Positions 3,795-47,337 of a DNA stretch of 64,000 nt are shown here, one piece after another (the first letter of the stretch is position 1; each line of letters opens with the position of its first letter). This stretch comes from Escherichia phage JoYop. Location: sequence record OR769032.1; one strand, given 5' to 3'. The notes beneath the pieces are model-generated. The model had not been told where the DNA came from, made no database searches, and saw nothing but the letters and a program-made list of their open reading frames with translations. A program made the translations under genes and the position numbers.

Positions 3795-4031
3795 TCAAAT
3801 GCAAGTAGTAATTACACCTGTAGTGCTCACACATGTATTCCCTAATTGAACACCTAAAGATCCGTTAGTATTCATATGAAGATTATCACCAATTTTAGTT
3901 GATACTTTCCCATTCATATGAATAATAACACTAGATTCAATAGGAGTCTGAATATCATTTTCAACATCAATAAATGGAATTGTTGCTAATGCAACTAAAC
4001 AAACTGCTAAGCAACCATAAACAATTTTCAT
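3795..4031 (-). CDS. small secreted protein, unknown function
   Basis: ATG at 4029-4031 (track start 4043 is a TTG); MKIVYGCLAVCLVALA signal peptide; RBS GGAG upstream; directly behind an early promoter. Confidence 0.5.
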   Translation of the reverse strand: MKIVYGCLAVCLVALATIPFIDVENDIQTPIESSVIIHMNGKVSTKIGDNLHMNTNGSLGVQLGNTCVSTTGVITTCI

Positions 4032-4053
4032 TTTGTTCTCCAAATCCGTATCA

Positions 4054-4095
4054 GTTGATAGTTGTATAGTACCATGGAAGAACAGTGATGTAAAC
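4054..4095 (-). promoter_or_regulatory. T4-type early promoter
   Basis: On transcribed strand GTTTAC (4090-4095) then conserved GGTACTATACAACTATCAAC block (4054-4074); same module repeated at 29261, 31396, 34972, 47296. Confidence 0.6.
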
Positions 4096-4182
4096 AGTTT
4101 TGTGAAAAAATTTTCAATGAATTCTAAAGACCCAGAATCATCTGTTTTTCACAAGTATAGATTTATATTACTTGTATGAAAA

Positions 4183-4200
4183 AGGGACCCGGAGGTCCCT
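4183..4200 (-). terminator. hairpin downstream of gene 43
   Basis: agggacc-cgga-ggtccct, 7-bp stem. Confidence 0.45.
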
Positions 4201-4212
4201 AGATTTATTCTA

Positions 4213-6909
4213 TCAGCCAAACAGGAAGTCTAACGAAGCTTTTTCTTCATAGTCCATACCTGCCGATTCACACATACCTGCAAGTGGTTTAACAAACGAT
4301 TTTTGGAACAAAGTTGAGTAGTCAATCCAAGATAGTACGTCAGAACGAATTTCCTTTGGAAGTTCTGTTCCCGATGGCCAAGCAATACACTTATCACCAA
4401 ATGGGTTTCCTTCACGTAATGGAAGAACCATTACTTTATTTCCATCCAAAATTGGAGCTACACCTAAACCGCTAACAGCTCGACGATAAGTTAGCACACC
4501 ACGAATATGGAACGGGCATTTAAATCCTGGCCAACCTTTATCATCGTATTTCGCTATATCGTTCGCAGTTTTTACTTCAGCAATAACTTTATAGTCAAGT
4601 TGACGATATTCTTTCTCAAAGTTCTTGTAATATTCTTGGACAGACTCTTCACCTTCCTGAAGAATACGACGAATACTTTCTTCGAGAGCTTCTTGTACTG
4701 CTTTTGGTGTTGAACTCTGTTGAGTTTCCATACCCATGATTTTTAGATGCGGTTCAGCAAATCGCTTATCTTCCATATCATAAACGTTCAGAGCATAACG
4801 CTTTTTCGCTTTCCAAAAACCACCGACACCCTTTGAACCAAGTGGAGGACAAGAAATAGCTTCACGGTCCATATGCATCAGATGCTCGCGGTTATTCATA
4901 TAATCACATAACTCACGATATGCAACATCAATCATAGGTTCCATCTTTTTCTTACCGAACTGATTCATGAATTCAACTAAATCATTTTGTTCTTTAAAGC
5001 GGTCAAGACCTACTTTTTCAATAACTTTATCTACGCAAACATATACCGAATCAGTGTCACCAGCTGCGATGAAGTCTTCACCATTAGTTCCACACACTTT
5101 ATTCAGATACTCATTAATTTTACGAGCAATCCACTGAATACCAACTTGGCCGAAAATTGTGATAGCAGTAGCATTTCGCAAATCATAGTAACGGAAATGA
5201 ATATTACCAAGAGCACCATAAAGACTGTTAATAAGAATTTTACGGTTCAGCTGATTTGTATTAGCAAGTGTAGCAGCTTTTTCACATTCTTCAATCAAAC
5301 TATTGAGAACAGATTCAGTATAATTCGATAGTTCATTTAAGAAATCATCACTGAACTTAACATATCGTTCAACTTCCGGTTTAGTTGAACAAGTCCCTGC
5401 GCCTTTCATAATAATTTTTTTAATAGCTTCGGCATTCATTTCTTCTGCGAACATTTTCTTTTTCCAGTCTTTACGTTGGAAAAATACTTTAGCGATTTCC
5501 TTTGGAATGATACCTTCTTGGTGCTTATCATACATCCATCCATTCGGAGAGCAAGAATATTCATCACTTGGCTTAGGAGCTGTTCCTGCGATATATTCAT
5601 GAATTGGATGAACTTTAAACTGACCACGAATAGTCTCAGGACTAATGTTAACCTGACGAATAATGCTCGGATACAGAGAAGTTAAGTCAAAACTCATAAT
5701 ATACCGACGAGCAATCGGTTTAGGTTCAAACACAAATGCACCCGGAAAACTCTGCTTAACGTGTGAACCTTGCTGAGGAATAACCTTATGTTCACCTTTC
5801 AGTGAGTTAAAAATAATAGCATCCCAAGTTTTAATAGGACTCATTACGCCAGAAAAAGGCATTTTAGCGTAATAAGACATACTTAAAACCAGATCGATAA
5901 ACCCACGAATTTTATCGATTGCTTGAACTGATTCTACGTCAATGATGTTATAACTAATGTATCGTTGATGATTAGTCTCACGAAGTTTATTAATAGGACC
6001 ATCGTACGGTAATTTACCTTTTTTGGTTTCATGTTGAGCAACTGATTCCAAAGAGAATGACGGCAAATTAGTAAACGCGAATTTCTTATACAAATCTAAA
6101 TAATCAAGAATAGATACGCCATCAATAGAATAAATTTCTTTGCTACCGTACATGTTTTGAATTAGTTTAGATTTTACTCGACCGATTGGGGAGAAGCGTT
6201 TCATACTGCGTTCACCAAGAACCATTTTAACACGATTCATGATATACGGAACGTCAAATCCCTCAATATTCCAACCAGTAAAAATAGCAGGTCGTTTCTG
6301 TTCCCAGAGATTAATATATTCCATGAGCATATCACGCTCATTATCAAATGGCATATAAATTACTCGGTCAAGAATTTCTTGAGGAACTTCATCACCACCT
6401 TCACAGTCAAGCTTAGCAGCTAATTTTGCATCCCATTTTGATACTGAGCCATACATTGAATTCAACAAATCAAAGACGTAAAAACGGTCGTCAATTGAAT
6501 CATAATGAGTGATAGCATCAATTTCATATTCTGCTTTCATTGGGTCAGGAAATTTATCACCAGTAACCTCAATGTCACAGTTAGCTACACGAACAAATTT
6601 TCGGTCATAAACAATTTCCGAACCGTATGTATCACTGATATAAGCGAGTTTAAAATCGTTCATACCGAGAGCTTCGAGACCGATGTCTTCCATTCGCTTC
6701 ATCCAGTCTCGTGCATCTTTCATTGATGGAAATTTTTGAGGAGCGCAGTTTTTACCATAGATGTCTTTGTATTTTGACTCTTCCTTACAATGCCTAAACA
6801 TAGTCGGAAGATATTCTACTTCACGAGTACGTTCCTTTCCATTTTCATCAATATAACGCTCAACAATGTTATTTCCGACTGTTTCGATAGAGATATAAAA
6901 TTCTTTCAT
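4213..6909 (-). CDS. 43: DNA polymerase (family B)
   Basis: 898 aa; same length and extensive identity to T4 gp43 as recalled (MKEFYISIETVGNNIVERYIDENGKER..., DTDS motif). Confidence 0.97.
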   Translation of the reverse strand: MKEFYISIETVGNNIVERYIDENGKERTREVEYLPTMFRHCKEESKYKDIYGKNCAPQKFPSMKDARDWMKRMEDIGLEALGMNDFKLAYISDTYGSEIVYDRKFVRVANCDIEVTGDKFPDPMKAEYEIDAITHYDSIDDRFYVFDLLNSMYGSVSKWDAKLAAKLDCEGGDEVPQEILDRVIYMPFDNERDMLMEYINLWEQKRPAIFTGWNIEGFDVPYIMNRVKMVLGERSMKRFSPIGRVKSKLIQNMYGSKEIYSIDGVSILDYLDLYKKFAFTNLPSFSLESVAQHETKKGKLPYDGPINKLRETNHQRYISYNIIDVESVQAIDKIRGFIDLVLSMSYYAKMPFSGVMSPIKTWDAIIFNSLKGEHKVIPQQGSHVKQSFPGAFVFEPKPIARRYIMSFDLTSLYPSIIRQVNISPETIRGQFKVHPIHEYIAGTAPKPSDEYSCSPNGWMYDKHQEGIIPKEIAKVFFQRKDWKKKMFAEEMNAEAIKKIIMKGAGTCSTKPEVERYVKFSDDFLNELSNYTESVLNSLIEECEKAATLANTNQLNRKILINSLYGALGNIHFRYYDLRNATAITIFGQVGIQWIARKINEYLNKVCGTNGEDFIAAGDTDSVYVCVDKVIEKVGLDRFKEQNDLVEFMNQFGKKKMEPMIDVAYRELCDYMNNREHLMHMDREAISCPPLGSKGVGGFWKAKKRYALNVYDMEDKRFAEPHLKIMGMETQQSSTPKAVQEALEESIRRILQEGEESVQEYYKNFEKEYRQLDYKVIAEVKTANDIAKYDDKGWPGFKCPFHIRGVLTYRRAVSGLGVAPILDGNKVMVLPLREGNPFGDKCIAWPSGTELPKEIRSDVLSWIDYSTLFQKSFVKPLAGMCESAGMDYEEKASLDFLFG

Positions 6910-6927
6910 AGATATTCCTTAGTTTAT

Positions 6928-6967: not shown

Positions 6968-6985
6968 AAGGGGCCGAAGCCCCTT
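6968..6985 (-). terminator. UUCG-tetraloop hairpin
   Basis: aaggggc-cgaa-gcccctt. Confidence 0.45.
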
Positions 6986-6987: not shown

Positions 6988-7209
6988 TTAAATTAGTACT
7001 ATTTGTCGGGTGAAAATTGTCAATCCATTTGCATCAATTGACTTAACGACTGCAGTAAAGTGTTTTTGTTCTGGGTGAATTAATTTTTGAAATTCTACCT
7101 GAAATTTTAGTTGGAGGTTTTCTGGTAAATCAAAAAGTGTTTCTGTCGCAGAAAGATTGTATTTTTCTTTAAGAGACGCCATGTATTCTTGCGGAGTTAT
7201 AGCAGTCAT
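6988..7209 (-). CDS. hypothetical small protein between regA and gene 43
   Basis: 73 aa from ATG at 7207-7209 (MTAITPQEY...), 2 nt after the regA stop; no obvious RBS. Confidence 0.35.
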   Translation of the reverse strand: MTAITPQEYMASLKEKYNLSATETLFDLPENLQLKFQVEFQKLIHPEQKHFTAVVKSIDANGLTIFTRQIVLI

Positions 7210-7210
7210 A

Positions 7211-7579
7211 TTAATTACCAATCGTATATTTAGGAACGAGTTTCCATTCATGTTTTTGTTTAAAAGAAATAACTCGGAAGTTATTAGTTAAATCTTTCAT
7301 AAAAGTTCTTTGGCCAGGAGCGATTTCAATCAGTCCCCAATCTTCTAACAGCCACGCAATCGAATCACGACGAATTTCATCTTCTTCTGTCATTTCAACT
7401 TGGCGACCATCCATGCGAAGCATTTCTTTAAAATGAACGATATAGTATAGTCCTTTTTTCTGGAGAATATGACAGGACTGATACAGAACTTTATCTTTGT
7501 TATTAGCAATTCCCATACGAGTCAAAGTTTCTTTTACTTTCAGAAAATCTTCAGGTTTTTTAAGAGTAATTTCAATCAT
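7211..7579 (-). CDS. regA: RegA translational repressor
   Basis: 122 aa; matches T4 RegA as recalled; order regA-62-44-45 conserved. Confidence 0.9.
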   Translation of the reverse strand: MIEITLKKPEDFLKVKETLTRMGIANNKDKVLYQSCHILQKKGLYYIVHFKEMLRMDGRQVEMTEEDEIRRDSIAWLLEDWGLIEIAPGQRTFMKDLTNNFRVISFKQKHEWKLVPKYTIGN

Positions 7580-9105: not shown

Positions 9106-9137
9106 AATTTCCTCATTCAAGTTTTAGTGTAAATTAT

Positions 9138-9155
9138 AAAGGGCCGAAGCCCTTT
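9138..9155 (-). terminator. UUCG-tetraloop hairpin between genes 45 and 44
   Basis: aaagggc-cgaa-gcccttt. Confidence 0.45.
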
Positions 9156-9156
9156 A

Positions 9157-9843
9157 TTAAAAGTCGTGGGTAGAATCAGCTTCAAGAGCTACTACATAAT
9201 TCGCATGTTCACCTTCAAATTTAGCAGCACCTTGTTTACCTTTTGCCCAAAGCAGAAGTTTATAATTTCCTGGTTGCATTTTCATATTTGCCATATTGAT
9301 AATGAAATTAAATGTATTTTCACCATCATAATCACCAAGAGTCAAAGAATATTTAACACGAGTCAAAGCAGAATCTTCTACTTTATTAAAACCGTTAATT
9401 ACGATTTTACCTTCTTTTACTGTGATAGCAATTGTATCAATCTGCAGACCACGAGATACACGCAACAGCTGTTGAAGGTCTTCAGCTTTAATTTCAGTAA
9501 CAACAGATGCTACCGGGAATGGAATTGGTTTATTAGGAGCAACTACTGTACTTGGATCGGCTGCTGGCCAAAAAATTGTTGAGCGGGCATCAGCAATTTT
9601 AATATTTCCATCTTCTGACTGGGAAATTTCTGCATCATCATTAACTAAGGACAGAATACCAAGAAAACCGTTCAAATCGTAAATTGCTACATCAAAATCA
9701 ATAACGTCAGAAATATTTGCTTCCGCATAAGTTGTACCATTAACTGCGCGAGTCATAATAAATTGACCTGATTTAAGCATAATACCGGAGTTAATAGTAG
9801 CGAAATTTTTAAGCAGAGCAGTAGTATCTTTAGACAGTTTCAT
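9157..9843 (-). CDS. 45: sliding clamp
   Basis: 228 aa; length and position match T4 gp45. Confidence 0.93.
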   Translation of the reverse strand: MKLSKDTTALLKNFATINSGIMLKSGQFIMTRAVNGTTYAEANISDVIDFDVAIYDLNGFLGILSLVNDDAEISQSEDGNIKIADARSTIFWPAADPSTVVAPNKPIPFPVASVVTEIKAEDLQQLLRVSRGLQIDTIAITVKEGKIVINGFNKVEDSALTRVKYSLTLGDYDGENTFNFIINMANMKMQPGNYKLLLWAKGKQGAAKFEGEHANYVVALEADSTHDF

Positions 9844-13824: not shown

Positions 13825-13847
13825 TATATCAAACTCCGTATAAAGCT

Positions 13848-13865
13848 AAAGGGCCGAAGCCCTTT
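13848..13865 (-). terminator. UUCG-tetraloop hairpin downstream of alpha-gt
   Basis: aaagggc-cgaa-gcccttt. Confidence 0.45.
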
Positions 13866-15066
13866 ATTTTGTAATAATGTCAAACTGTTCTTTAAAACAG
13901 AAGCTTGAATCTTGGTGCTGATACAAAAATTCATAAGCTTTTTCACGTTCACGATCATAAAGAGCTCGGTCAGATGACAGTTCTTTAATTCGTTCAAATG
14001 TTGATTCCATGTCATTTTCATCAAACCAAACGATACCGCTATCATGCGAAATTAACGGAGTATTATCAACACGGAATTTTAAATTTTCGCCAGTAGATTT
14101 CCAAAATACCGGAATTGTTCCGCACGCACCAAGCTCGAGATGAGTATATTCTAAAGAACGTTGTAGATATTTTTTGTCCAACTTACTCAGCTGATAACCA
14201 AATCCGGATTTACTCATGCGTTCAAGCATTTCGCTATTTACATAACGGTCAAGAATTTGCGTTGGCAAATTAGGAGCAATTTTAATTTGGTCTACTTGAT
14301 GAAGACGATAATACTCGTATGGAATTCCTTTTTCTTTAATAGGAATGAATGCCGGAGAACGTTCCAGACCTTCCATAATAGTACTTAGTCCTGCAGGTTT
14401 AAGATGTTTTTCGTGAAAATCAAACATCTGATAAAAACCTTTCCACGTAGTTGTACGACCAATCCAACGGTTGATATTCATGTTAATTTCAGAAACATCT
14501 TTCCAGTAAGTTGATCGAACCTTCGCAATATCCATAGGAGGCTGAAAGTTATATACGGTCGGTGCTTCTTCAATATCATCAAACAAAGAAACTGTTTCTG
14601 GATACCATTCTTTCATCAAAACTTTATTAAAGTCACCATTATCAGAATGACTAAAAATAACATCAGCTCGACGAACAGTTTCTTCTAATCCCAAATTTCG
14701 GCGTAAAGAAAGAGAAGAATGGTCATGTTGATAAACTACAACACGAACAGAAGGTTTAATGTTATCAATAATTTTTTTATAGTTATTAATTGTGTCTTCT
14801 TCAACTGAAGTAGCAGGAACTGAATTGATAACTAGAATATCACAATCATTTACCAGCTTAAGTGTTTTATCGTATTCTTTTGCCAATAAAACTGGAATTG
14901 AAAATGACTTATAATCATGCGCGCAATTACGAGTAAATGATTTATCTTTAGCATAAACCAAAGTTACTTCATGACCATTTTTAATAAACCAATCACGCTG
15001 CTCAAGAGAAAATTTAGTTACGCCACAACCTTCAAGACCTCGAGCCATAAAAATGCATACTTTCAT
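13864..15066 (-). CDS. agt: DNA alpha-glucosyltransferase
   Basis: 400 aa; near-identical to T4 alpha-gt as recalled (M..CIFMARGLEGCGVTKFSLEQRDWFIKNGHEVTLVYAKDKSF). Confidence 0.95.
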   Translation of the reverse strand: MKVCIFMARGLEGCGVTKFSLEQRDWFIKNGHEVTLVYAKDKSFTRNCAHDYKSFSIPVLLAKEYDKTLKLVNDCDILVINSVPATSVEEDTINNYKKIIDNIKPSVRVVVYQHDHSSLSLRRNLGLEETVRRADVIFSHSDNGDFNKVLMKEWYPETVSLFDDIEEAPTVYNFQPPMDIAKVRSTYWKDVSEINMNINRWIGRTTTWKGFYQMFDFHEKHLKPAGLSTIMEGLERSPAFIPIKEKGIPYEYYRLHQVDQIKIAPNLPTQILDRYVNSEMLERMSKSGFGYQLSKLDKKYLQRSLEYTHLELGACGTIPVFWKSTGENLKFRVDNTPLISHDSGIVWFDENDMESTFERIKELSSDRALYDREREKAYEFLYQHQDSSFCFKEQFDIITK

Positions 15067-15117
15067 TTAATATCCTCATTGTTTTGGTTTATTTTACCAA
15101 AAATTTATAAAGCAATA

Positions 15118-15135
15118 TAGGAGCCGAAGCTCCTA
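15118..15135 (-). terminator. UUCG-type hairpin
   Basis: taggagc-cgaa-gctccta. Confidence 0.4.
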
Positions 15136-15306
15136 TCCGCATAATACGCCATACAGAGGCTCATTAGAACTTCTAAATTTTATACGCTTATATTTTATAG
15201 TTCCTTCTGCTTTAGCTTTATCATGAGACTCTTTAAAGCGTCTCATCATTTCTTCTTTAGAGGAACGAATTTTATTATAATCTATTTCAGAGGTCTGGGC
15301 GTTCAT
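15133..15306 (-). CDS. hypothetical small protein
   Basis: 57-aa minus ORF MNAQTSEIDYNKIRSSKEEMMRRF...; weak RBS. Confidence 0.3.
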   Translation of the reverse strand: MNAQTSEIDYNKIRSSKEEMMRRFKESHDKAKAEGTIKYKRIKFRSSNEPLYGVLCG

Positions 15307-17449: not shown

Positions 17450-17501
17450 ACATTATCCTCAATTGCGTTAAAATTTTATTATCCAAAAAGGGCCGAAGCC
17501 C

Positions 17502-17702
17502 TTAGCTAAACTGTTTGGCGCCCTTCCAGCCTTCGTACATCATTGCAGCTGATATTAATATTGCTCCTGCGCATTTTGAATATTTGTGATTCCAAAACCA
17601 GTTCAGAAAAACTTCGTCATCAATACCTTGGGCTATCATATTTTCAAAGAACTGACGACGAGCTTCGGCAATTCGTTGTGATAATTTAGATTCAGGATTC
17701 AT
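17502..17702 (-). CDS. hypothetical protein (55.x)
   Basis: 66-aa ORF following a UUCG hairpin at about 17488-17504. Confidence 0.45.
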   Translation of the reverse strand: MNPESKLSQRIAEARRQFFENMIAQGIDDEVFLNWFWNHKYSKCAGAILISAAMMYEGWKGAKQFS

Positions 17703-29302: not shown

Positions 29303-29304
29303 AA

Positions 29305-31469: not shown

Positions 31470-31487
31470 GGGAGCCCGAAGGCTCCC
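31470..31487 (-). terminator. UUCG-tetraloop hairpin
   Basis: gggagcc-cgaa-ggctccc. Confidence 0.5.
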
Positions 31488-31489
31488 TA

Positions 31490-32961: not shown

Positions 32962-32963
32962 AA

Positions 32964-33485
32964 TTATCCTTTCATTGAAGGTGTAACAGTTGTTAAATAC
33001 TTAATCATAGCTTCAGCTTCTGATTTTGATAATGAAATTTCTCCATTGTTTTGACGAATAGAAATAAAATCCGGATGACGGTCACCACCAGCTTTTAAAA
33101 CACACATATAAGTATCAGTTTCATCTTCAATATCTGAAATGATTGAAGCAGTTCCGCATGAATGCGGTTTTTGATAAATCAATACAGCTTTTCTTCCACC
33201 GTTTGACTGTTCATAAACTTTTAATACATCAAACAAATCAGTTCTTTTATCAATAGCTAAAATGTTATTTTCATCTTCAATGTTAAATCCTTCGGATACT
33301 TCATAAAGCGTTACCCATAAATCGCCAATATCAATAACAGCATTTACGTTTCCACGACTTTCAAGAGTATGACAAATTTTCTTGATTTCATCATAACTCA
33401 TTTTAATAATATCATCTCCTTGAATAAGGAAAATATCATTTTTAAATTCAACACGAATTAAACCACTTTCACTTGAAATATACAT
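32964..33485 (-). CDS. hypothetical protein, paralog 1
   Basis: 173 aa; C-terminus ISIRQNNGEISLSKSEAEAMIKYLTTVTPSMKG resembles the next gene. Confidence 0.55.
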   Translation of the reverse strand: MYISSESGLIRVEFKNDIFLIQGDDIIKMSYDEIKKICHTLESRGNVNAVIDIGDLWVTLYEVSEGFNIEDENNILAIDKRTDLFDVLKVYEQSNGGRKAVLIYQKPHSCGTASIISDIEDETDTYMCVLKAGGDRHPDFISIRQNNGEISLSKSEAEAMIKYLTTVTPSMKG

Positions 33486-33491
33486 ATTTCC

Positions 33492-34037
33492 TCACTTTGA
33501 AATCATAGTTGGAATGACAGAATCAAGATAAGTCTTTAGCGCAATAGCTTCGTCTTTGTTTAATGTAATGATATGTGATCGAAAATCGTCAATTTGACGA
33601 ATAGATACTACATCTCCCTCTTCATAGCATTTTGACACATTTAAAATAGTTTCATCATTCTGATTACAGGAGTTAGTAATAATAGCATTACATTTTTTAA
33701 ACCATTTTAAATTATGTTTTCTTTTAGTAGAATCATAAAAATATTTAATCTTAGTTATAAAATTATCCCAATTATTAATTGATAAGCATATTGACTCGCT
33801 TTCAATGTTAAATCCTGGGCATAAAGAATAAAAATGAATTTTATGCTCATCATTAATGCTTACAATTTTATCAGTATAAGGATTTTCAATTTGGGTTAAA
33901 TGAATGATTTCACTAGGCGTAAAATATAGCATATCGTCTTCTTGCGTCAAACGATACATATTATTTACTTTTTCTATAGCCAATTCACCAAAAAGTGAAC
34001 TAACTTCTAATACTAATCGTTTCGCCTCTCCCATCAT
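33492..34037 (-). CDS. hypothetical protein, paralog 2
   Basis: 181 aa; C-terminus VSIRQIDDFRSHIITLNKDEAIALKTYLDSVIPTMISK. Confidence 0.55.
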   Translation of the reverse strand: MMGEAKRLVLEVSSLFGELAIEKVNNMYRLTQEDDMLYFTPSEIIHLTQIENPYTDKIVSINDEHKIHFYSLCPGFNIESESICLSINNWDNFITKIKYFYDSTKRKHNLKWFKKCNAIITNSCNQNDETILNVSKCYEEGDVVSIRQIDDFRSHIITLNKDEAIALKTYLDSVIPTMISK

Positions 34038-34201
34038 TACATACTCCTCTGAATCATATCAATAATGTTGTTCACCAAATTATAAGTAAACATTGGGTAA
34101 TTATATTGAATCATCACATACACAACAAGCAAAACTTTCATTCTCTTCTCCTTGGCAGTTGACAAGATTACTATACCATAACCTTGCCAACTTGTAAACC
34201 A

Positions 34202-34375
34202 TTAAATGACGTTTTCGATAAAATTCTGAAGCTTTGTGTGAGCATCAACCATGATTTTCATTTCTTCTTTGGCGAAAGCTGTACCTCTTTCCCGAGAAGA
34301 ATATTCATAGTCAGAAACTGCATTAGCATATTCTTCAATTAGCTTCATTAAAAACATCTGCTTTTCAGTTTTCAT
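34202..34375 (-). CDS. hypothetical small protein
   Basis: 57-aa minus ORF MKTEKQMFLMKLIEEYANAV... with RBS AGGTGG; hand-translated. Confidence 0.35.
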   Translation of the reverse strand: MKTEKQMFLMKLIEEYANAVSDYEYSSRERGTAFAKEEMKIMVDAHTKLQNFIENVI

Positions 34376-34559
34376 TATTCCACCTAATCATTTCAAGATA
34401 TTGAACTAACTTAGCTTTGGATTTATCCAAATCCTTTTTAGCTGCTTCTATACCGTCGTATGAATATCCTTCACAATGCTCAACTGCTAATTGGTATGAA
34501 TCTATTTCAATATCACGTGCTAATTTAATGATTTTTTCAAACTGTTCACGTGTCAGCAT
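34365..34559 (-). CDS. hypothetical protein
   Basis: 64-aa ORF. Confidence 0.45.
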   Translation of the reverse strand: MLTREQFEKIIKLARDIEIDSYQLAVEHCEGYSYDGIEAAKKDLDKSKAKLVQYLEMIRWNNEN

Positions 34560-34561
34560 AC

Positions 34562-34801
34562 TTAAACTCTCGTATTATGATCGATAATTTCATCAAGAAA
34601 CATATCTAAAGCTTCTACAGCATTATCAACTTTAGCTTCAAATTCATCAATACCTTTATTTGCAATACCAGATGAAGCCCAAGCAAAGTCGCTAAGTTCC
34701 TCATCTGCTTTACGAATTAAAGCTACTAATTCTTTAATCTTATCCGCTTGTTCGATACTAATCATTATTCCACCACATATGAAAGAGAGAATATTGCACA
34801 C
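34562..34801 (-). CDS. hypothetical protein
   Basis: 79-aa ORF. Confidence 0.45.
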
Positions 34802-34953
34802 GCCATGTGAGTTGCAACTTCATCACACATATTATAGCGTTTCTTAAGAAGTTCTACAAGTTCTTCACTAGTAACTTCATCCATGTCGACGAAAAAATCA
34901 CCATTAATGATGACGTAGATATTTCCTTCTTGATTGAGTGCTTCAATTTTCAT
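34765..34953 (-). CDS. hypothetical protein
   Basis: Start at ATG 34951-34953 ([10 protein letters not shown]) with RBS GAGGAG; 62 aa. Confidence 0.5.
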
Positions 34954-34971
34954 GATGTTCTCCTCTTTATC

Positions 34972-35011
34972 TGATAGTTGTATAGTACCACAGCTCAAAC
35001 GGAAAGTAAAC
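34972..35011 (-). promoter_or_regulatory. T4-type early promoter
   Basis: GTTTAC 35006-35011 plus conserved -10 block 34972-34990. Confidence 0.55.
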
Positions 35012-35026
35012 CGGTAAAATGAAAAA

Positions 35027-35044
35027 AGTCTCCCGAAGGAGACT
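35027..35044 (-). terminator. UUCG-tetraloop hairpin
   Basis: agtctcc-cgaa-ggagact. Confidence 0.45.
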
Positions 35045-35048
35045 AATG

Positions 35049-35435
35049 TTATTCGAGGGAAAGAAGATATTTACTTTGATAAAACATTCCAGTAATATCA
35101 TCTATCGTGCTTTGAATGGCTGGAGGCATTTCTTTATAAATGCTGTTAGATTGGTCTAGTATGTGATCAATCATTTTAATTGTATCGGTAGGAAGTTTAC
35201 TAGCATCTGGAATTGAAGGAGTGTATTTTCTACCAGAATACCCCAAATACTGCTCACCAAATTTGTCAATCAAATCTGGTAACTCAGAAAAAATAAAATC
35301 GTATGCTTTGTGTCTAGCATAGCTTTTAGTTTCAAAATGTGCAGAATGAAAATAAGCTTGTGCAGCCATTAATAAACCTAAGTATTCATCTGCCTTTGAA
35401 GGTTTTCCACTTTGTGAAAAGTCGCTGAATTTCAT
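35049..35435 (-). CDS. hypothetical protein (rI.-1 position)
   Basis: 128-aa ORF immediately upstream of rI. Confidence 0.55.
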
Positions 35436-35725
35436 TCAGTCTCCAATTTAATGTTCATAATTCTAGCGTATGATTGTGCCATCTCCGCGCCTCGTTCTAT
35501 ACATTCAAAATCAGAAGAGCACGGGTCATTTTTATAGGTCGTTCTCATAAAACTATAGAATTGTTCAGACGATTCTACGCTTTTGTTTTCAAAAAGTGTA
35601 TAAACATGTCTAATACCAGATTCCATAAATTTATCAAAATGAGGATCGACATTCGCTTCAATAGATGGAGATAAAACAAATGACAATCCTAGCATGGCAA
35701 ATAGTGCCGTTGCTTTTAAGGCCAT
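35432..35725 (-). CDS. rI: lysis inhibition regulator rI
   Basis: 97 aa; signal-anchor start MALKATALFAMLGLSFVLSPS; matches T4 RI as recalled. Confidence 0.88.
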   Translation of the reverse strand: MALKATALFAMLGLSFVLSPSIEANVDPHFDKFMESGIRHVYTLFENKSVESSEQFYSFMRTTYKNDPCSSDFECIERGAEMAQSYARIMNIKLETE

Positions 35726-35737
35726 AAAGGCCTCCTA

Positions 35738-35950
35738 TCATTTTTGTCCTGTATTTACTTTATGCCGATGCACGGCCTTAACTTTATCAAGGTATTTTTC
35801 AAAATTTCGCAATCTGGTATAGTCTGCCGGAGATTGGTTGATTGATACTTCTCGACGCAAAGCTGAAATAACATTTCCAACTTCTCTACGAATTTCATCT
35901 AATTGAAGCACAGTAAGATTGCGAAGTTGCTTTTCAGTTAATTGTAGCAT
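35738..35950 (-). CDS. hypothetical protein (rI.1 position)
   Basis: 70-aa ORF. Confidence 0.5.
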
Positions 35951-35992
35951 ATATACCCCTTTAGTTAGATAAACCTATTTATAACTTTTGCG

Positions 35993-36574
35993 CTAATCTA
36001 GCTTTTTAGTTAATTCGTTCCAATGTTTTCTACATAAAGATACGTAAATTTCATCACCAATACAAATTTGATCGCCTTCTTTAACTGGGGTTCCATCTTC
36101 CATTAATCGAGCGGTCATAATAGCTTTTTTACCACAGTGACAAACCGCTTTAAGCTCAATAAGTTTATCAGCAATCGCCAAAAGTTCTTTAGAACCTTCA
36201 AATAACTTTCCTGCGAAATCAGTTCTTAATCCATAAGCCATAACAGGAACATTATATGTATCAACAATTCGGCTTAATTGGTGTACTTGTTCAGTTTTTA
36301 AAAACTGAGCTTCATCTACAAATACGCAATGAATATCTTTTTGTGCTTCAGCCCATTTATAGAACTCGAAAATATCCATATCATCCGTAATAATATTCGC
36401 TTCCTGTTTAATTCCAATGCGAGAAACAACTTCACAAACAGAATCGCGAGTATCAATAGCAGGTTTAAGAACTAATACACCCATTCCACGTTCTTTATAA
36501 TTATGCGCAGCAGTCAAAAGAGAAGCAGATTTTCCAGCATTCATTGCTGCATAAGTAAAAATTAAACTCGCCAT
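35993..36574 (-). CDS. tk: thymidine kinase
   Basis: 193 aa; P-loop AAMNAGKS; matches T4 Tk as recalled. Confidence 0.93.
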   Translation of the reverse strand: MASLIFTYAAMNAGKSASLLTAAHNYKERGMGVLVLKPAIDTRDSVCEVVSRIGIKQEANIITDDMDIFEFYKWAEAQKDIHCVFVDEAQFLKTEQVHQLSRIVDTYNVPVMAYGLRTDFAGKLFEGSKELLAIADKLIELKAVCHCGKKAIMTARLMEDGTPVKEGDQICIGDEIYVSLCRKHWNELTKKLD

Positions 36575-39210: not shown

Positions 39211-39212
39211 AG

Positions 39213-39491
39213 TTATTCTTTAAATCTGATCAATTTATTCATAGACTTTGAAACTTCTGCACGAACCTCATGCAGATTTTTGAGCTGTTCAAGACGCTGC
39301 GTATAGTAAGCAATTTCATCTTCTTCAAGACAGTCCTGCGAATCTTCTTTAAGATAGCGTGCATAATCCTGGAAAGCATTACGAATTACTTCTTGGAAGT
39401 CATCAAGACTTTGAATTTTCTTAGGAGCGGCAGATACACGACGAGGTGCAGTATAATACTCATAACCAAACCCTGCGCTTAATTGAGCCAT
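39213..39491 (-). CDS. hypothetical protein (vs.3 position)
   Basis: About 92 aa from [13 protein letters not shown]. Confidence 0.5.
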
Positions 39492-39793
39492 TAGTATTTT
39501 TCCTCTGGTTGGAACACAGCACGGCAAGCCCACATACTTGCTTCTTTGAGTTTCGTTTTAGCAATAGTTAACTGATCGAGGCTTTCGGCGTAATTCTTCG
39601 CGAGTTCATCATCTTCACAGCTATCAAATGCTTCCCAAAATTCATCGTATAAAGCATCAAAGATAAGTCCTAAACGAACTTCAGCGTCTTTGATAGCATT
39701 TACTTTACCGATTTTTTCGTCGGTATGTGGCTTATAACCTTTAATATCTTCAATCATATTTGACTTCCTCACCAGTGCATAAATCGTATTCAA
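39491..39793 (-). CDS. hypothetical small helical protein (vs.4 position; Acb2-type sponge candidate)
   Basis: 100 aa; second gene after regB, the position of T4 vs.4. Confidence 0.45.
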
Positions 39794-39971
39794 CTAAACG
39801 AATAGGTTCATGAATGCCATATCCTTGAACAGATATTTCTGTCGTAGGATAAATTCCATCAATATCACCCATATTCCACGCTTCATTAAATTGCTGTTCG
39901 CCTGAATTACTAAACCACTCGGCGAAAGCATTTAGCACATCTTTAGAACCTTCAATAATTATCTTTGCCAT
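39750..39971 (-). CDS. hypothetical protein
   Basis: 73-aa ORF. Confidence 0.45.
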   Translation of the reverse strand: MAKIIIEGSKDVLNAFAEWFSNSGEQQFNEAWNMGDIDGIYPTTEISVQGYGIHEPIRLVEYDLCTGEEVKYD

Positions 39972-40333
39972 TACAGACTCTCGGTAAAGGTACGAGCGAT
40001 AACGTCGCGCTGCTGTTCCGGAGTCAGAGAGTTAAAGCGAACTGCATAACCTGATACACGGATGGTCAGCTGCGGATATTTTTCCGGATGCTTAACTGCA
40101 TCTTCCAGAGTTTCACGACGCAGAACGTTAACGTTCAGGTGCTGACCACCTTCAATTTTAACTGTAGGCTGTGGCTCAATTTCAATTTCACGGGCATGCA
40201 AACCATAGAAAATTTCTGGGTCTACAAAAGAGTCCTCTTTAAAGGTTTTAGAAACGATAATTCGTGCTTGAATACCATCTTCAAAATAAATAGTACCTTT
40301 GTGCGTGCCTTCAAGAATTTGATATGCTTTCAT
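39971..40333 (-). CDS. autonomous glycyl-radical cofactor (GrcA/YfiD-like)
   Basis: 120 aa; C-terminal [28 protein letters not shown] carries the RVSGY glycyl-radical motif. Confidence 0.8.
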
Positions 40334-40340
40334 ATAAACC

Positions 40341-40721
40341 TCAATTAGAAAATAAATTTATCCAAGATTGTTCTTTAATTAAAAATGGCTCAGAATCATA
40401 TGCCATTAAACTCTGGGTAATTAATCCTTTAAATGGTCCATCAATAAATTCCATTGTAAAATATGGAATTTTATTCATTAACCGTGCATTAGGAGCAGTG
40501 CACAAAACTCTGCATCCTTTGAATACGCCTTTCTGCAATTTATACTGCTTAGGATAAAATTCGCTCAAAATGTTGTTATTTGCCAAAATTTCAAAATGAT
40601 TCACCAATTTATTTTTAATAGTTTTTGGCGAAAAATAAAGATATTCGAAAAGCTGTGCATCTGTCATCATTGCATTCCGATTACGAAAAACTGTGGACGA
40701 GTAATACCACCAATGCAGCAT
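40341..40721 (-). CDS. hypothetical protein
   Basis: 126-aa ORF; true start uncertain. Confidence 0.45.
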
Positions 40722-41206
40722 TTACTTTTACAGCAATGTTGCACAGTGTCAATATGAATGTCGTAAATCTTATCCATATCAGGAGATTTAACGGGCTCAT
40801 CAATTATATACAAAATTCGTGAAAGCGATAAACCTCTGAACTTGCTTCCTTTATTACCAATAAAACTGCGCACAGAATCAGTAAATAAACGAAAACGTAT
40901 ATCATCGTTAGAATAACGCGAAAATTCCTTTTTAATGTTATTTGCAGAAATTTTAGCGTAAGCTGAAGTATTAGAAAGAACAATAACTGTTCCGCCATCA
41001 TACAACCAATTGGCAGCAAAATTAGTCACAGCAATTGATTTACCGGATTGACGTCCACCGTCAAGTCGAAGTGTGCAGTACTGTTTAAGTAAGTCTTCAA
41101 ATGGCGGGATATATTCGTTTTTACAAATTTCTTCTACTCTAGCATCAGAATGGTGTGTAAAAGCATTCATCAGGGATAGATAAGGACCAGTCAAAAATGT
41201 TCTCAT
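40667..41206 (-). CDS. small P-loop protein
   Basis: Start at ATG 41204-41206 (MRTFLTGPY); Walker A-like GGRQSGKS and Walker B-like ILYIIDEP. Confidence 0.5.
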   Translation of the reverse strand: MRTFLTGPYLSLMNAFTHHSDARVEEICKNEYIPPFEDLLKQYCTLRLDGGRQSGKSIAVTNFAANWLYDGGTVIVLSNTSAYAKISANNIKKEFSRYSNDDIRFRLFTDSVRSFIGNKGSKFRGLSLSRILYIIDEPVKSPDMDKIYDIHIDTVQHCCKSKCCIGGITRPQFFVIGMQ

Positions 41207-41270
41207 TTTGTTCTCTCTAGATTTGGGCCATTCCATGGCGCATGAATTGTCCATTCCTGTATTTACCCCT

Positions 41271-41316
41271 CCAAGTAATTATGAATATACTATCACAATT
41301 CTAGGAGAAAGTAAAC
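41271..41316 (-). promoter_or_regulatory. T4-type early promoter
   Basis: GTTTAC 41311-41316 with a -10 block in 41271-41295. Confidence 0.45.
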
Positions 41317-41318
41317 TG

Positions 41319-41621
41319 TTATTTACCTTTAATTACTTTAGCTGCTTCGATAGCCGCTTGCTGAAGGTCATCCATAGACATACCGAATTTAGAAGCAAAG
41401 TTATCAATTTTCTTTTCGACAGCATTCAAAGGCTTGGCCTGTTTACCTTCATTAGCGCCAGGAAGAGCGAGAATACGCTCTTTGTCAATATAAAGGCTTA
41501 CAAGTTTCTTACGGTCTTTATCGGACAAATCATGAAATGAATGGGCCTTTTTATTTATAGCGGCTTCTAATTTACCTGCACTCACTCGCGCTTCAGTAAT
41601 AAATTCTTGATAGGTTTTCAT
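41319..41621 (-). CDS. ipII: internal protein II-like
   Basis: 100 aa; N-terminal capsid-targeting sequence MKTYQEFITEA; length matches T4 IPII. Confidence 0.75.
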   Translation of the reverse strand: MKTYQEFITEARVSAGKLEAAINKKAHSFHDLSDKDRKKLVSLYIDKERILALPGANEGKQAKPLNAVEKKIDNFASKFGMSMDDLQQAAIEAAKVIKGK

Positions 41622-41661
41622 ATGTTTCCTTTAATGTAAATAGATTTGAGTATTCGTTTTA

Positions 41662-42240
41662 TTAGGAATTACGGGCTGCATTAGCAACGGCGTAAGCGTA
41701 CTGAATATTGACGTCTTTAAACGTACCTTTGGAGGTATCTATTTCTGCCTTAAAGCCGCCTTTAGTCATAACATCGGCAAATTCTTTACGGAAAGCCATT
41801 GCATCAAGACCTTTCCATGATGATTTATGCTTAGCAAATTCAAGACCAGCGTAGTTGACAGCCTTAGCTAATTTATTATCAATAACCCATTTACCGGCTT
41901 TAGGTACAAACACTGGGCCTTTCTGTTTAGAGAATAGTTTTAAATTCCAACGACGAAGGTCACCGTCAGCTTTAACAAAAGCTGCGTCCAAGTTACTAGC
42001 AACAACATCTTGAATATGGCCAAATTTAAGCCCATCAACTTCAATATTTAGATCAGTACGCCAGCGAAGTCCTTCCCAAGCGAAAGCTTTAAAGTCAGAA
42101 GCTTTTGTAGCTAAGTACCGTTCAATAGGAGCCGTTTTAGGGTCAAAGCCGTTTCCCGATCGATAGGTCCACTCATCTTTATTAATGCCTTTGGCCTTTT
42201 CCACAGAAGCTTCAGCGATAAATTCTTTATACGTTTTCAT
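41662..42240 (-). CDS. ipIII: internal protein III-like
   Basis: 192 aa; N-terminus MKTYKEFIAEA; length matches T4 IPIII. Confidence 0.75.
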   Translation of the reverse strand: MKTYKEFIAEASVEKAKGINKDEWTYRSGNGFDPKTAPIERYLATKASDFKAFAWEGLRWRTDLNIEVDGLKFGHIQDVVASNLDAAFVKADGDLRRWNLKLFSKQKGPVFVPKAGKWVIDNKLAKAVNYAGLEFAKHKSSWKGLDAMAFRKEFADVMTKGGFKAEIDTSKGTFKDVNIQYAYAVANAARNS

Positions 42241-42259
42241 GTGTTTCCTTGTTTGTTTT

Positions 42260-42298
42260 GATAGAGTAATTATACCATATTAATACTTAAGCGTAAAC
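42260..42298 (-). promoter_or_regulatory. T4-type early promoter
   Basis: GTTTAC 42293-42298 with tggtataat -10. Confidence 0.45.
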
Positions 42299-42301
42299 TG
42301 T

Positions 42302-42562
42302 TTAAGCTTTACCGCCAGAAATAATTCCGAAGTTGTTAAAATCGTATCCAATATCGTCAACATCTACTTTAGGGCTTGCTACAACATAAGCAATTTCACT
42401 ACGTTTTGCATAGGTGTTTATTTCTTTACCATCACCGCCTAGGAAAGAATACCCATTACGTTTTAATGAGCCAAAGTCTTCCGCATCACCAATGAAAGCT
42501 TTAACTTTAAATTTAGGACCTTTGGCATCTGCTTCAGTGATAAATTCTTGATACATTTTCAT
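42302..42562 (-). CDS. internal-protein-like small protein
   Basis: 86 aa; N-terminus MKMYQEFITEA matches the IP capsid-targeting motif. Confidence 0.6.
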   Translation of the reverse strand: MKMYQEFITEADAKGPKFKVKAFIGDAEDFGSLKRNGYSFLGGDGKEINTYAKRSEIAYVVASPKVDVDDIGYDFNNFGIISGGKA

Positions 42563-42568
42563 TTTTCC

Positions 42569-42982
42569 TTAGTAAATTGATTTACCATAGTATTTGTACC
42601 AAGTAGGACGTTGAGCAATTTTTTCGTCTAAGCGTGCTTGACTTATCGCAATGGACGCTTCGGACGGGACATAATTATTACGAAATTCGGCAGGGATGTC
42701 AGAAATATCCTGGACAGATGTGTCCTTGATTTTGAAACCACGTTTCAAGCATTCGGCGATTAGCTCGATTTGACGTAAACGTAAAAATTCAAGTTTGTCG
42801 TAAAAGAATGTTACATGACCTGTGCCTAAGATAAATGTTGGAGAGATTTTAAAATCCTTTACACGTTTACCGTTTTGAACATGTTTACGGACTGCACCAA
42901 ATACGCGTGGTAATTCACGATACTCAGCCATAAGATGTTGGTCGGTCAGTTCAGAAACAAGTGTTAAATTGATACGAGTCAT
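42569..42982 (-). CDS. denV: endonuclease V (pyrimidine dimer DNA glycosylase)
   Basis: Start at [12 protein letters not shown] (138 aa); matches T4 DenV as recalled. Confidence 0.92.
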
Positions 42983-42997
42983 AATTTCCTCCAAGTA

Positions 42998-43039
42998 GTT
43001 GATGAATGTATAGTATCAAAGTCCTTGGAGGAAGTAAAC
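42998..43039 (-). promoter_or_regulatory. T4-type early promoter upstream of denV
   Basis: GTTTAC 43034-43039 with a -10 block at 42998-43018. Confidence 0.45.
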
Positions 43040-43040
43040 A

Positions 43041-43322
43041 CTATTTTTCTGAAGCGCCTGAAATATATTTTTCAAGACGTTGTTTCATCAGCGAGCCGTT
43101 CTTAGCGATTTCTTCCGGTTTATCGCACATACGCAACAAAGCTTCAAGCTTAACGATATCACTGGTACGTTCAAATTTGCGAGTATCTATCTTACTAGCA
43201 AGTTCAGAAATACGTGCTAATAGACTTTCGGCTTCAACCAAAGCTGCACCTAGCTTAGTTGCAAATGTGTCAGTAGCTTCGTTAAGAATAGATTCTGATA
43301 AAAATTCACTATATGTTTTCAT
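43041..43322 (-). CDS. internal-protein-like small protein
   Basis: ATG 43320-43322 ([11 protein letters not shown]), overlapping the e stop; 93 aa. Confidence 0.6.
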
Positions 43323-43807
43323 ATATACGCTTTCCAAGTTCCTGTTTTAAATGTTGAGATTACGCGTTTCGCGCGATTAGGTGTCTGACGGTACCATTTA
43401 GATTGGGCTAGATTTACTGCCGCTTCATCCCAACGTTTCTGTTGAAGCATACGAAGAGAATTAGTAAAACCAGCGACGCCTGCTACACCCATTTGGAAGA
43501 CCATATTGACCAACGCACATCGACGAACTGCATCTAAAGAATCATATACCGGTTTAAGTTTAGCATTACCCAAGATTCCGCGAACGGCTTTATCAACGTC
43601 TTCATTAAATAGCTTTTCAGCCTCATCAAGGGTAATTGTACCGTTGCATTTACGTCCGATCATTCTGTCAAGTTCAGCTTTAGCTACGGCTAAAGACGGG
43701 TTCTTTGTTACTAAATGGCCTATGCCAATCGTCCAAAAGCCTTCAGTGTCTTTGTATAAAGTCAGTCTAAGACCTTCATCTATACGTAACATTTCAAATA
43801 TATTCAT
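43319..43807 (-). CDS. e: lysozyme (endolysin)
   Basis: 162 aa; [15 protein letters not shown]...TIGIGH; near-identical to T4 lysozyme as recalled. Confidence 0.95.
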
Positions 43808-46099: not shown

Positions 46100-46115
46100 A
46101 GGGGCCGAAGCCCCT
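46100..46115 (-). terminator. UUCG-tetraloop hairpin
   Basis: aggggc-cgaa-gcccct. Confidence 0.45.
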
Positions 46116-46120
46116 TATCA

Positions 46121-46714
46121 TTATTTCAGAGAATTAATGTATTCCTGAACATCGGCAGAGGTGGTTTCAACCCCAGAAATATTACCGTTAAAGGTTTCAA
46201 CTCGAGCAAGAGTATCTTCAATATCAACCTTAGTCAGTGCTGCAATTTCAACTACATCATCAGCAGTACTAATTCCAAGGGCATTCGCTGCACGAGTTTC
46301 ACGGATATATTCCAATTTAACTGCAAGTTCTTGGCGAGCATCATCTAACTCAACTACTTTCTTGGCGATTTCAATTCGCATTTCAGCATAACCATCAGCT
46401 TTAGTAGTTAACTGTTCAGCTGTTCGACGATATAACAAGCCGAGTTTAGCATGCATTGTTACATCTTGACCTTCGGAAAGAAGCTTACGAATTTCACGCT
46501 CTTTTGATTCGGCCTGCTTATTCTTTTCGACAATAAGTTCACGAATACGTTTTTCTTCATTAATAGATTTAACAGAAGCAGTTTTTAGGTCTTTAATTTT
46601 ATCAAGTAGTTTTGCTGCTGCAGCAGTATACTGTTCTTCAACAGATAGATTTTTAGCCATAGCAGAACCAAGTTTAGTGCGAATAAACTCAACAATTTTC
46701 TTCAGTGTGTTCAT
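46121..46714 (-). CDS. long alpha-helical coiled-coil protein (PspA/IM30-like candidate)
   Basis: 197 aa; charged heptad-rich sequence throughout; similarity to PspA judged by composition only. Confidence 0.5.
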
Positions 46715-46757
46715 AGTATTTCCTTAGGTTAATTAAGATTTAAAATCCATGAGAGTA

Positions 46758-46934
46758 TTATACTCCGGATAGTTTGTAAACTATTTTAACATCGCCTTTT
46801 GCTGCTTTATAACCTTCAGCCCAAGATACAACCGAGTTTTTATCTGAAGATTCAAATTCTGGCATTGGGCTTTCACCAATGTTCACACAATATGTTTCTT
46901 CATTTTCGTCGAACCAAATAGTTAAAGTAGTCAT
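46758..46934 (-). CDS. hypothetical small protein
   Basis: 58-aa minus ORF MTTLTIWFDENEETY...; hand-translated. Confidence 0.3.
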   Translation of the reverse strand: MTTLTIWFDENEETYCVNIGESPMPEFESSDKNSVVSWAEGYKAAKGDVKIVYKLSGV

Positions 46935-47002
46935 TTATTTCTCCGTTTCTATATTTGTTTTGATAAGTCTATAATAACACCGTCCTTGGTGTTTGTACAC
47001 AA

Positions 47003-47266
47003 TTATTTCATATTATTGAAATATTCTTCTGCGATTTCGTCGTTATCATGGTAAACTTTAGAAGACAGCTTAACATAACCTTCAGCAGTGAACATGTTAA
47101 TCACAACCTTTACAGTATACCACTGACCGTCTTCATTACCCATTACTGCATAGGTTTCAAACATCGGATGGTCAGGACCGATAACTTTAATATCATTCAC
47201 CGTACGACCAAAATCTTCTGAAACACATTTCATAAAGAAGTTGAACAGTTCACCGTAATTATCCAT
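47003..47266 (-). CDS. hypothetical protein
   Basis: Start at ATG 47264-47266 (MDNYGELF) with RBS GGAG; 87 aa; directly behind an early promoter. Confidence 0.55.
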   Translation of the reverse strand: MDNYGELFNFFMKCVSEDFGRTVNDIKVIGPDHPMFETYAVMGNEDGQWYTVKVVINMFTAEGYVKLSSKVYHDNDEIAEEYFNNMK

Positions 47267-47295
47267 TTCGTTCTCCAAGTTGTTTTCTGTATCAG

Positions 47296-47337
47296 TAGTT
47301 GATAGTTGTATAGTACCACAGAAGAACAGGGATGTAA
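47296..47337 (-). promoter_or_regulatory. T4-type early promoter
   Basis: GTTTAC 47332-47337 plus conserved -10 block 47296-47316. Confidence 0.6.

Follow-up and report, generated by a model that had tools for sequence, protein, structure and literature searches.

Recurrent T4-type early promoter-leader cassettes of Escherichia phage JoYop as probable recombination substrates in front of mostly retained genes

Five near-identical sequences, each composed of a T4-type early promoter, a short leader and a start codon, stand in front of early genes in a stretch of 64,000 nucleotides (nt) from Escherichia phage JoYop (sequence record OR769032.1; the whole stretch is called the window here). Megablast of the regions 28000-36000 and 1-25000 against the GenBank phages identified the window as part of a T4-like coliphage of the genus Tequatrovirus with several hundred T-even relatives, and the nearest matches, at ~96% identity, were RB32, RB33, T6, AR1 and R5505. 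The window is collinear with T4 from uvsX (~22 kb) up to the baseplate genes, and every one of its early genes is on the minus strand. Synteny was compared over 50-kb regions of T4, RB32, T6, Shfl2 and RB14 (all Tequatrovirus) and of RB69, which belongs to another genus (Mosigvirus). For the population counts, the matching records were scored as covering at least 80% of the query module, and additional examples were sought by scanning the IMG/VR viral contigs for the core of the repeat, which gave 24 stretches on ~9 contigs, too few for population statistics but of use as further cassette examples.

The five cassettes and the genes behind them all lie on the minus strand. The first cassette, P4095 (4029-4125), has the UP element AAAATTTTTTCACAAAAC, followed by the -35 element GTTTAC (4090-4095), TGG and the -10 element TACTAT (4066-4071), and it ends with a GGAG Shine-Dalgarno (SD) sequence and an ATG (4029-4031). 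This is the start codon of a 78-aa open reading frame (ORF) with a hydrophobic N-terminus (ORF78, 3795-4031), behind which lies imm.1 (DUF5481, 3404-3784); an earlier note on this sequence had taken 3404-4031 for a single gene, which in fact consists of these two ORFs. Cassette P29302 (29242-29330; -35 at 29297-29302, -10 at 29273-29278, ATG at 29242-29244) precedes nrdC.8 (28717-29244); it overlaps the stop codon of nrdC.9 and has no terminator. Cassette P31438 (31372-31462; -35 at 31433-31438, -10 at 31409-31414, ATG at 31372-31374) precedes nrdC.10 (30406-31374) and shares the longest identical block with P4095. The two remaining cassettes are P35011 (34951-35020; -35 at 35006-35011, -10 at 34982-34987, ATG at 34951-34953), which precedes the 62-aa ORF mobD.5 (34765-34953), and P47339 (47264-47365; -35 at 47334-47339, -10 at 47310-47315, ATG at 47264-47266), which precedes e.8 (47003-47266).

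An 18-nt core, GGTACTATACAACTATCA when read on the minus strand, is present without mismatch in all five cassettes (4056-4073, 29263-29280, 31399-31416, 34972-34989 and 47300-47317); 0.11 copies were expected, and none of 100 shuffled sequences reached five. The recurrence of the core at three sites beyond the longest repeat, as first noticed in the earlier note, is thus confirmed. The longest repeat, described there as a 49-nt block at 4026-4074 and 31368-31416, is real, but its length is 51 nt and the first pair of coordinates was off by one (4025-4075 = 31368-31418). This block reaches from the extended -10 element as far as the fourth base past the ATG. In addition, P4095 and P47339 are 94% identical across 65 nt (4053-4117 and 47297-47361; repeat family D1), and the early promoters make up the biggest direct-repeat family within the window.

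When the five copies were aligned, GTTTAC was found 16 nt upstream of the core in every one of them (the estimate had been about 17 nt), so that the common minus-strand layout is GTTTAC-N16-GGTACTATAC. The distance between the -35 and -10 elements is also constant (GTTTAC-N18-TACTAT, which equals TTTACA-N17-TACTAT), and TGG precedes TACTAT in all five, as in an extended -10 element. The A/T-rich UP element AAAATTTTTTCACAAAAC is carried by P4095, P31438 and P47339, and the region upstream of the -35 element of P29302 and P35011 is A/T-rich with a different sequence. The leader that follows, 25-45 nt long, provides the GGAG SD sequence and then the ATG. A structured leader RNA was considered and rejected, because the leader folds poorly (z = 0.28). 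The minus strand of the window has about 14 recognizable early promoters of this type, and the TACTATACAACTATCA subtype is that of the five flagged ones.

The same five loci carry a cassette, with the same genes behind it, in T4, RB32, T6, RB14 and Shfl2, i.e., in every Tequatrovirus of the panel. The T4 orthologs have the exact core in four of five cases, with two mismatches in the copy before mobD.5. P4095 is the ortholog of the T4 imm.1 promoter. Annotations in other records agree with this assignment: in T4 record L13089, msp1 (= e.8) is given -35 and -10 signals and a stem-loop further upstream, and the record of phage fPS-65 annotates a terminator and a predicted early promoter before the ORF78 homolog, at the site homologous to P4095. 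By sequence comparison, the five repeats are recognized as orthologs of the T4 immediate-early promoters of imm.1, nrdC.8, nrdC.10, mobD.5 and e.8, and as members of one paralogous family. The JoYop cassettes are predicted to be active promoters from the T4 literature, from annotation and from orthology.

The upstream sides of the cassettes are less uniform. The nrdC.11 terminator (31463-31488, minus strand; hairpin 31469-31488) folds as AGGGAGCC-UUCG-GGCUCCCU followed by U6 (-16.2 kcal/mol, z = -3.8) and abuts the UP element of P31438, and the rI.-1 terminator (35021-35044, minus strand; hairpin 35027-35044), AGUCUCC-UUCG-GGAGACU plus U6 (-10.8 kcal/mol, z = -4.5), abuts P35011. The gene 43 terminator (4178-4200, minus strand; hairpin 4183-4200) has a UCCG loop (GGGACC-UCCG-GGUCCC and a U-tract; -13.9 kcal/mol, z = -3.55) and is located ~80 nt upstream of the P4095 -35 element; it is the homologous site at which the fPS-65 terminator is annotated. 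A terminator with a GAAA loop (47471-47499, minus strand; hairpin 47476-47499) lies ~130 nt upstream of P47339, and a second copy of this hairpin, 90% identical, is found at 48031-48054 (family D14), so that the two form a direct repeat around ORF 47507-47980. All five of these hairpins have z-scores from -3.3 to -4.5 and are followed by 5-6 T, as intrinsic terminators are. Upstream of P29302 only a weak AT-rich stem was detected, which was not significant (z = 0.34). Hence, a stem-loop abuts the promoter in two of the five cassettes (P31438 and P35011), with the P4095 and P47339 hairpins 80-130 nt away, and the statement that a UUCG hairpin usually accompanies the promoter applies to P31438 and P35011 but not to P4095, P47339 and P29302. 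UUCG-loop hairpins were found at 31469-31488, 35027-35044, 6968-6985, 9136-9157, 13847-13866, 15117-15136, 17488-17503 and 46100-46115, and they occur at no fewer than six intercistronic sites that have no promoter nearby (family D4); the hairpins are therefore best regarded as terminators of the neighbouring genes and not as part of the repeat. Together with one at 96-115, the six that do not abut a cassette form a family of the GGGC-UUCG-GCCC type at intercistronic sites away from early promoters, and several of them have no clear U-tract.

The earlier note had proposed that the genes bracketed by the cassettes are mobile and exchangeable. For each of the listed genes, a cassette stands on the 5' side but not on the 3' side; the one exception in the window, with cassettes on both sides, is the block formed by nrdC.10, a homing endonuclease gene and nrdC.9. 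Furthermore, four of the genes are kept in place in the majority, or nearly the whole, of ~500 close relatives. The nrdC.8 module was covered in 651 of 741 records, 501 of them at 95-99% identity, and the nrdC.10 module in 479 of 634, with 500 records at 95-99% identity when any coverage was accepted. The mobD.5 module was covered in 497 of 501 records, which places it across the genus. The e.8 gene is in place in every panel genome, and both of its neighbours are variable; a query with e.8 and both flanks was covered in 185 of 637 records, a low count because the query took in the variable e.7 slot, and the e.8 stretch itself was matched in those sampled rows that otherwise lacked the rest of the query. 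The gene imm.1 is conserved. In RB69, nrdC.8 and nrdC.10 are in place, and mobD.5 and imm.1 are missing. Pfam searches found no family for ORF78, nrdC.8, mobD.5, ORF 47507-47980, ORF 46758-46934 or the seg-like ORF 29690-30409, a sub-threshold match only for the e.8 protein, and weak sub-threshold matches to AAA/STAND NTPase-like families for the nrdC.10 protein. The e.7 slot next to e.8 (46758-46934) carries at least three unrelated alleles in close relatives, namely T4 e.7, RB32ORF130c and a 58-aa ORF shared by the window, RB14 and Shfl2, between the conserved genes e.6 and e.8.

Among the genes of the five modules, only ORF78 is truly polymorphic. T4, RB32, T6 and RB14 lack it, and it is present in ~316-325 of ~520 records, i.e., in ~60%, with ~40% lacking it. 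Genomes that have a homolog have just one, and wherever its position was checked it was at the same locus; there is therefore no sign of movement between loci. The insertion/deletion (indel) that accounts for its presence or absence is exact between two 8-bp ATGAAAAT repeats, one at the start of ORF78 and the other at the start of imm.1, so that it abuts the P4095 leader and involves no second cassette. The proposed exchangeability fails for nrdC.8, nrdC.10, mobD.5 and e.8, ORF78 alone being polymorphic. What varies near the cassettes are small ORFs (ORF78, the ORF in the e.7 slot, the one upstream of e.8 and inserts before nrdC.10). Overall, the interpretation in the earlier note is partly supported.

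The leaders and spacers themselves are mosaic. In RB14, the imm.1 cassette bears a spacer of the e.8 type and an e.8-type leader (...GATACAGAAAACAACTTGGAG...). At the same site, an nrdC.10-type leader is found in T6, Shfl2 and the window, and a third type in T4. An 84-nt megablast query aimed at counting chimeras of the RB14 type matched the e.8 cassette in part and other imm.1 alleles with gaps, and both kinds of match fell within the same identity and coverage bands. The sequence GGAGAAC is found in three cassettes of the window, and the other five phages compared have GGAGAAT at all three. The same combinations of spacer and leader subtypes also stand before unrelated genes elsewhere in the complete T-even genomes. 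In Shfl2, a 36-nt segment comprising core and leader is duplicated in tandem before nrdC.10 (28860-28940 of the Shfl2 stretch), and in ZN18 terminator hairpins are fused straight to the -10 region, both the UP element and the -35 element having been lost.

Several insertions and deletions also have their junctions in or next to early promoters. In ECML-134, ZN18 and one metagenomic contig, two small ORFs are inserted at 31386|31398, just past the core and before the SD sequence of nrdC.10; a second and different early promoter beyond the insert then drives nrdC.10. In RB69, ORF102c lies between nrdC.11 and nrdC.10 with two flanking promoter copies that share ATGTTATTATAGACCTATC, and a UUCG hairpin stands in front. 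A 4.27-kb deletion in Shinka (window 30705-34979) ends on one side within the -10 element of P35011. Both ends of the denV deletion seen in comparison with T4 lie within the promoter at 41316, and one edge of a 4.1-kb deletion in T6 coincides with the upstream boundary of the -35 element of the promoter at 39210. The block with denV and the internal-protein (IP) genes is replaced from the start codon behind the promoter at 42298 onward. A dedicated site-specific recombination site at the core was considered and found no support; the junctions are scattered and lie at the upstream boundary of the -35 element, in the spacer, just past the core and at the ATG.

Taken together, the mosaic leaders and spacers, the tandem duplication and the hairpin-promoter fusions appear, on sequence comparison, as clear footprints of recombination between cassette copies. 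The account that we favor, with a probability of roughly 85%, is that the repeats are strong T4-type early promoter-leader cassettes, orthologous to those of T4, which also serve as recombination substrates and behind which the downstream genes are normally retained. Under this account, the host RNA polymerase would fire from these very strong sigma-70 promoters immediately upon infection, and the promoter would be followed by an unstructured leader of ~25-45 nt that carries the start codon behind a GGAG ribosome-binding site. Wherever a transcription unit ends with the upstream gene, its intrinsic terminator, a hairpin with a UUCG, UCCG or GAAA tetraloop and a U-tract, would stand before the promoter. 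The secondary role as recombination substrates is suggested by the comparisons and by the fact that the cassettes are dispersed direct repeats of 50-100 nt in a phage with very active homologous recombination. Most exchanges may be non-crossover gene conversions, by which spacer and leader variants would be shuffled between loci, and occasional unequal or microhomology-mediated events may add or remove small ORFs right beside the cassette, the gene directly behind it being normally kept. A stronger version, in which frequent ectopic gene conversion across distances of 2 to 43 kb makes the cassettes evolve in concert and reassorts whole spacer-plus-leader subtypes among unrelated genes, is tentative, and we hold it to be slightly less than an even chance; the e.8 leader on imm.1 in RB14 and the one derived GGAGAAC variant in three cassettes of the window would be examples.

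Some observations weigh against this account. The ORF78 indel occurs with no cassette on its far side, and its ATGAAAAT boundaries also fit slippage or illegitimate recombination. The GGAGAAC variant may represent three independent changes or a polymorphism, and it was also seen at e.8 in another contig. The predicted promoter activity in JoYop rests on orthology. Furthermore, the rearrangement breakpoints were not enriched at the cassettes. When 29 distinct events that distinguish the window from the five Tequatrovirus genomes of the panel were collected and their edges scored per gene junction, edges fell at 5 of 12 cassette junctions and at 28 of 84 others (odds ratio 1.4, Fisher p = 0.39). 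In a sample of this size, which is small, what has been proposed for promoter-early stem-loop (PeSL) elements is inseparable from viable indels simply falling at gene boundaries.

About 7 of the 29 events consist of the presence, absence or replacement of homing endonuclease genes, which have their own mechanism; they involve segA, mobB, mobC, I-TevII, mobD, the seg-like ORF 29690-30409 and endonuclease genes of RB32 and T6. The variation could be driven mainly by homing endonuclease genes and by ordinary homologous exchange between co-infecting phages, with the cassettes as bystanders, and both mechanisms are also named in the literature on these genomes (Comeau et al. 2014, PMC4122927). This explanation leaves unaccounted for the junctions inside promoters, the ORFs flanked by two cassettes and the swapping of leaders between distant loci. 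We consider it rather unlikely, although more probable than the other alternatives, and it is complementary to the recombining-cassette account and not exclusive of it.

Another possibility is that the repeats are maintained by selection for promoter strength and translation start alone, and that the cassettes play no part in rearrangement. The unusually extended consensus of the T4 early promoters (PMC2988021) speaks for it, as do the conservation of each cassette at its orthologous locus and the lack of enrichment among rearrangement edges just described. However, the identity also covers the 16-nt spacer and 20-35 nt of leader, positions that have no known role in the promoter, and segments are reassorted between loci, with the e.8 leader on the imm.1 cassette of RB14 and the nrdC.10 leader at the imm.1 site of T6, Shfl2 and the window. 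The Shfl2 tandem duplication, the ZN18 fusions of hairpin to -10 region and the indel junctions inside cassettes point in the same direction, so that functional conservation as the only cause is improbable.

Lower still is the probability that the cassettes belong to mobile PeSL modules, with the five downstream genes (imm.1 with ORF78, nrdC.8, nrdC.10, mobD.5 and e.8) as cargo swapped between phages. The patchy distribution of ORF78 among close relatives, the lack of mobD.5 and imm.1 in RB69, the cassette-flanked inserts at the nrdC.10 site and the published PeSL model, which covers T4 and PST, are what such cargo would lead one to expect. Against this stand the retention of nrdC.8, nrdC.10 and mobD.5 with their own cassettes in the records counted above and of e.8 in all panel genomes, the presence of nrdC.8 and nrdC.10 in place even in a Mosigvirus, the single, constant locus of ORF78 homologs wherever it was checked, and the near absence of two-sided cassettes from the window. 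For four of the five genes the cargo interpretation is largely refuted. Chance recurrence of an AT-rich motif, for which nothing but the low G+C content of the genome could be adduced, is virtually excluded by the excess of exact 18-mers over expectation, by 51 nt of exact identity and by the presence of the motif at orthologous sites in all relatives examined.

JoYop adds one more T-even genome in which early expression signals recur as near-identical modules, here with concrete footprints of recombination. For annotation, the cassettes mark the starts of early transcription units and the spots where small ORFs of unknown function come or go. The PeSL idea is tempered by the finding that the promoter-adjacent genes are mostly stable and that, in the small panel, edges were no commoner at cassettes than at other gene boundaries. 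If the cassettes do evolve in concert, ectopic recombination in T4-type genomes could be read naturally from this family, and the leader subtypes might be functionally interchangeable expression modules and not gene-specific regulators.

Other loci of the window also differ from T4. It lacks the mobile elements segA, mobB, mobC and mobD of T4 as well as the T4 nrdD intron, which carries I-TevII (window 1323-2268, 15058-15081, 19850-19870, 21146-21149 and 32505-33466), and the mobD position holds two other ORFs (32500-33485). The T4 gene b-gt is replaced by a 282-aa ORF (1412-2260), which relatives annotate as a T2/T6-type beta-glucosyl-HMC-alpha-glucosyltransferase. Between nrdC.9 and nrdC.10 lies a 239-aa ORF (29690-30409), annotated as a seg-like site-specific endonuclease in relatives (RB32ORF093c) and absent from T4 and Shfl2. 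An 87-aa ORF (6988-7251; like RB32ORF047c, "43.1") lies between gene 43 and regA and is absent from T4, T6 and Shfl2; its deletion edge, 6991, is 6 nt from the UUCG hairpin at 6968-6985. T4 and T6 lack ORF 47507-47980 (157 aa, RB32ORF133c-like), the junctions coinciding exactly with the GAAA hairpins, and Shfl2 and RB14 have other sequence in its place.

The denV/IP block (41254-43337) is rearranged with respect to T4. The denV gene (42569-42994) is only 78% identical to that of T4. As in RB69, it has a small ORF on either side and follows closely behind e, whereas its T4 neighbours are ipII and vs.8. Two early promoters, with -35 elements that begin at 41316 and 43039, have junctions of this block within or beside them, and a further junction coincides with the start codon behind the promoter at 42298. 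In the T6 record NC_054907 (37786-37860), the vs.3-ipIII segment (window 39212-43323) is missing and e is joined directly to the regB promoter. A 41-nt repeat with four copies (41584-41624, 42203-42243, 42525-42565 and 51416-51456) contributes the first codons of four small genes of the IP loci, and presumably corresponds to the conserved N-terminal capsid-targeting sequence. A replacement junction, 51433, is inside one copy of it.

As for known systems, the C(UUCG)G tetraloop hairpins of T4 intercistronic regions, reportedly described by Tuerk et al. in 1988, have counterparts in the UUCG-loop hairpins of the window, but most of these are not beside early promoters. The T4 early promoters, said to have been compiled by Liebig and Rüger, by Wilkens and Rüger and by Miller et al., are alike in having a UP element, a GTTTAC -35, TGn and a TAnnnT -10, and they stand before the same five genes at the same positions. 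They differ in nothing essential, except that the imm.1-site promoter of the window drives the additional ORF78 before imm.1, and that its leader is of the nrdC.10 type and not of the T4 type. They have been described as "uber" promoters of UP/-35/TGn/-10 composition with extra consensus regions (PMC2988021). The shuffling of the IP locus in T-even phages (Repoila et al. 1994, as cited in PMC2839356 and PMC4122927) resembles what is seen in the IP/denV block (41.2-43.3 kb) and in the IP locus at 51.1-51.5 kb, where replacement junctions lie in or near early promoters and one junction lies ~20 nt inside a gene whose first codons belong to the repeat of the IP-locus genes (family D3). Unlike the cassettes treated here, these loci are outside the five listed modules, although they are within the coordinate range of the earlier note except for the one at 51 kb.

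A further parallel is the PeSL, which was defined in RB49 and phi1 with experimental demonstration of mini-circles (Arbiol et al. 2010, PMC2839356) and was later extended to PST/T4 and nt-1/KVP40 (Comeau et al. 2014, PMC4122927); analogous T4-early-promoter elements at IP loci had already been pointed out (PMC2839356). The PST/T4 PeSL has the consensus TTTACW-N17-TAYWAT, with an AT-rich region and a stem-loop upstream and the SD sequence and ATG at the 3' end (PMC4122927). An AT-rich region, early promoter, SD sequence and start codon follow one another in this order in the five cassettes. Because the consensus and the layout are exactly those of the PST/T4 element, the window cassettes can be described as T4 early promoters that fit the published PeSL composition. 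The match to PeSL cassettes suggested in the earlier note is therefore upheld, in composition and consensus as well as by direct sequence evidence of recombination. The location in hyperplastic regions is also shared, and some indel junctions of the window region fall between the -10 element and the SD sequence or ATG, like the published mini-circle junctions. They differ in that an adjacent stem-loop is present in only two of the five, the flagged downstream genes are not the variable ones, and breakpoints are not enriched in the panel. The promoter cassettes and their PeSL classification are already published, and to this comparison the leader-swapping footprints make a modest addition.

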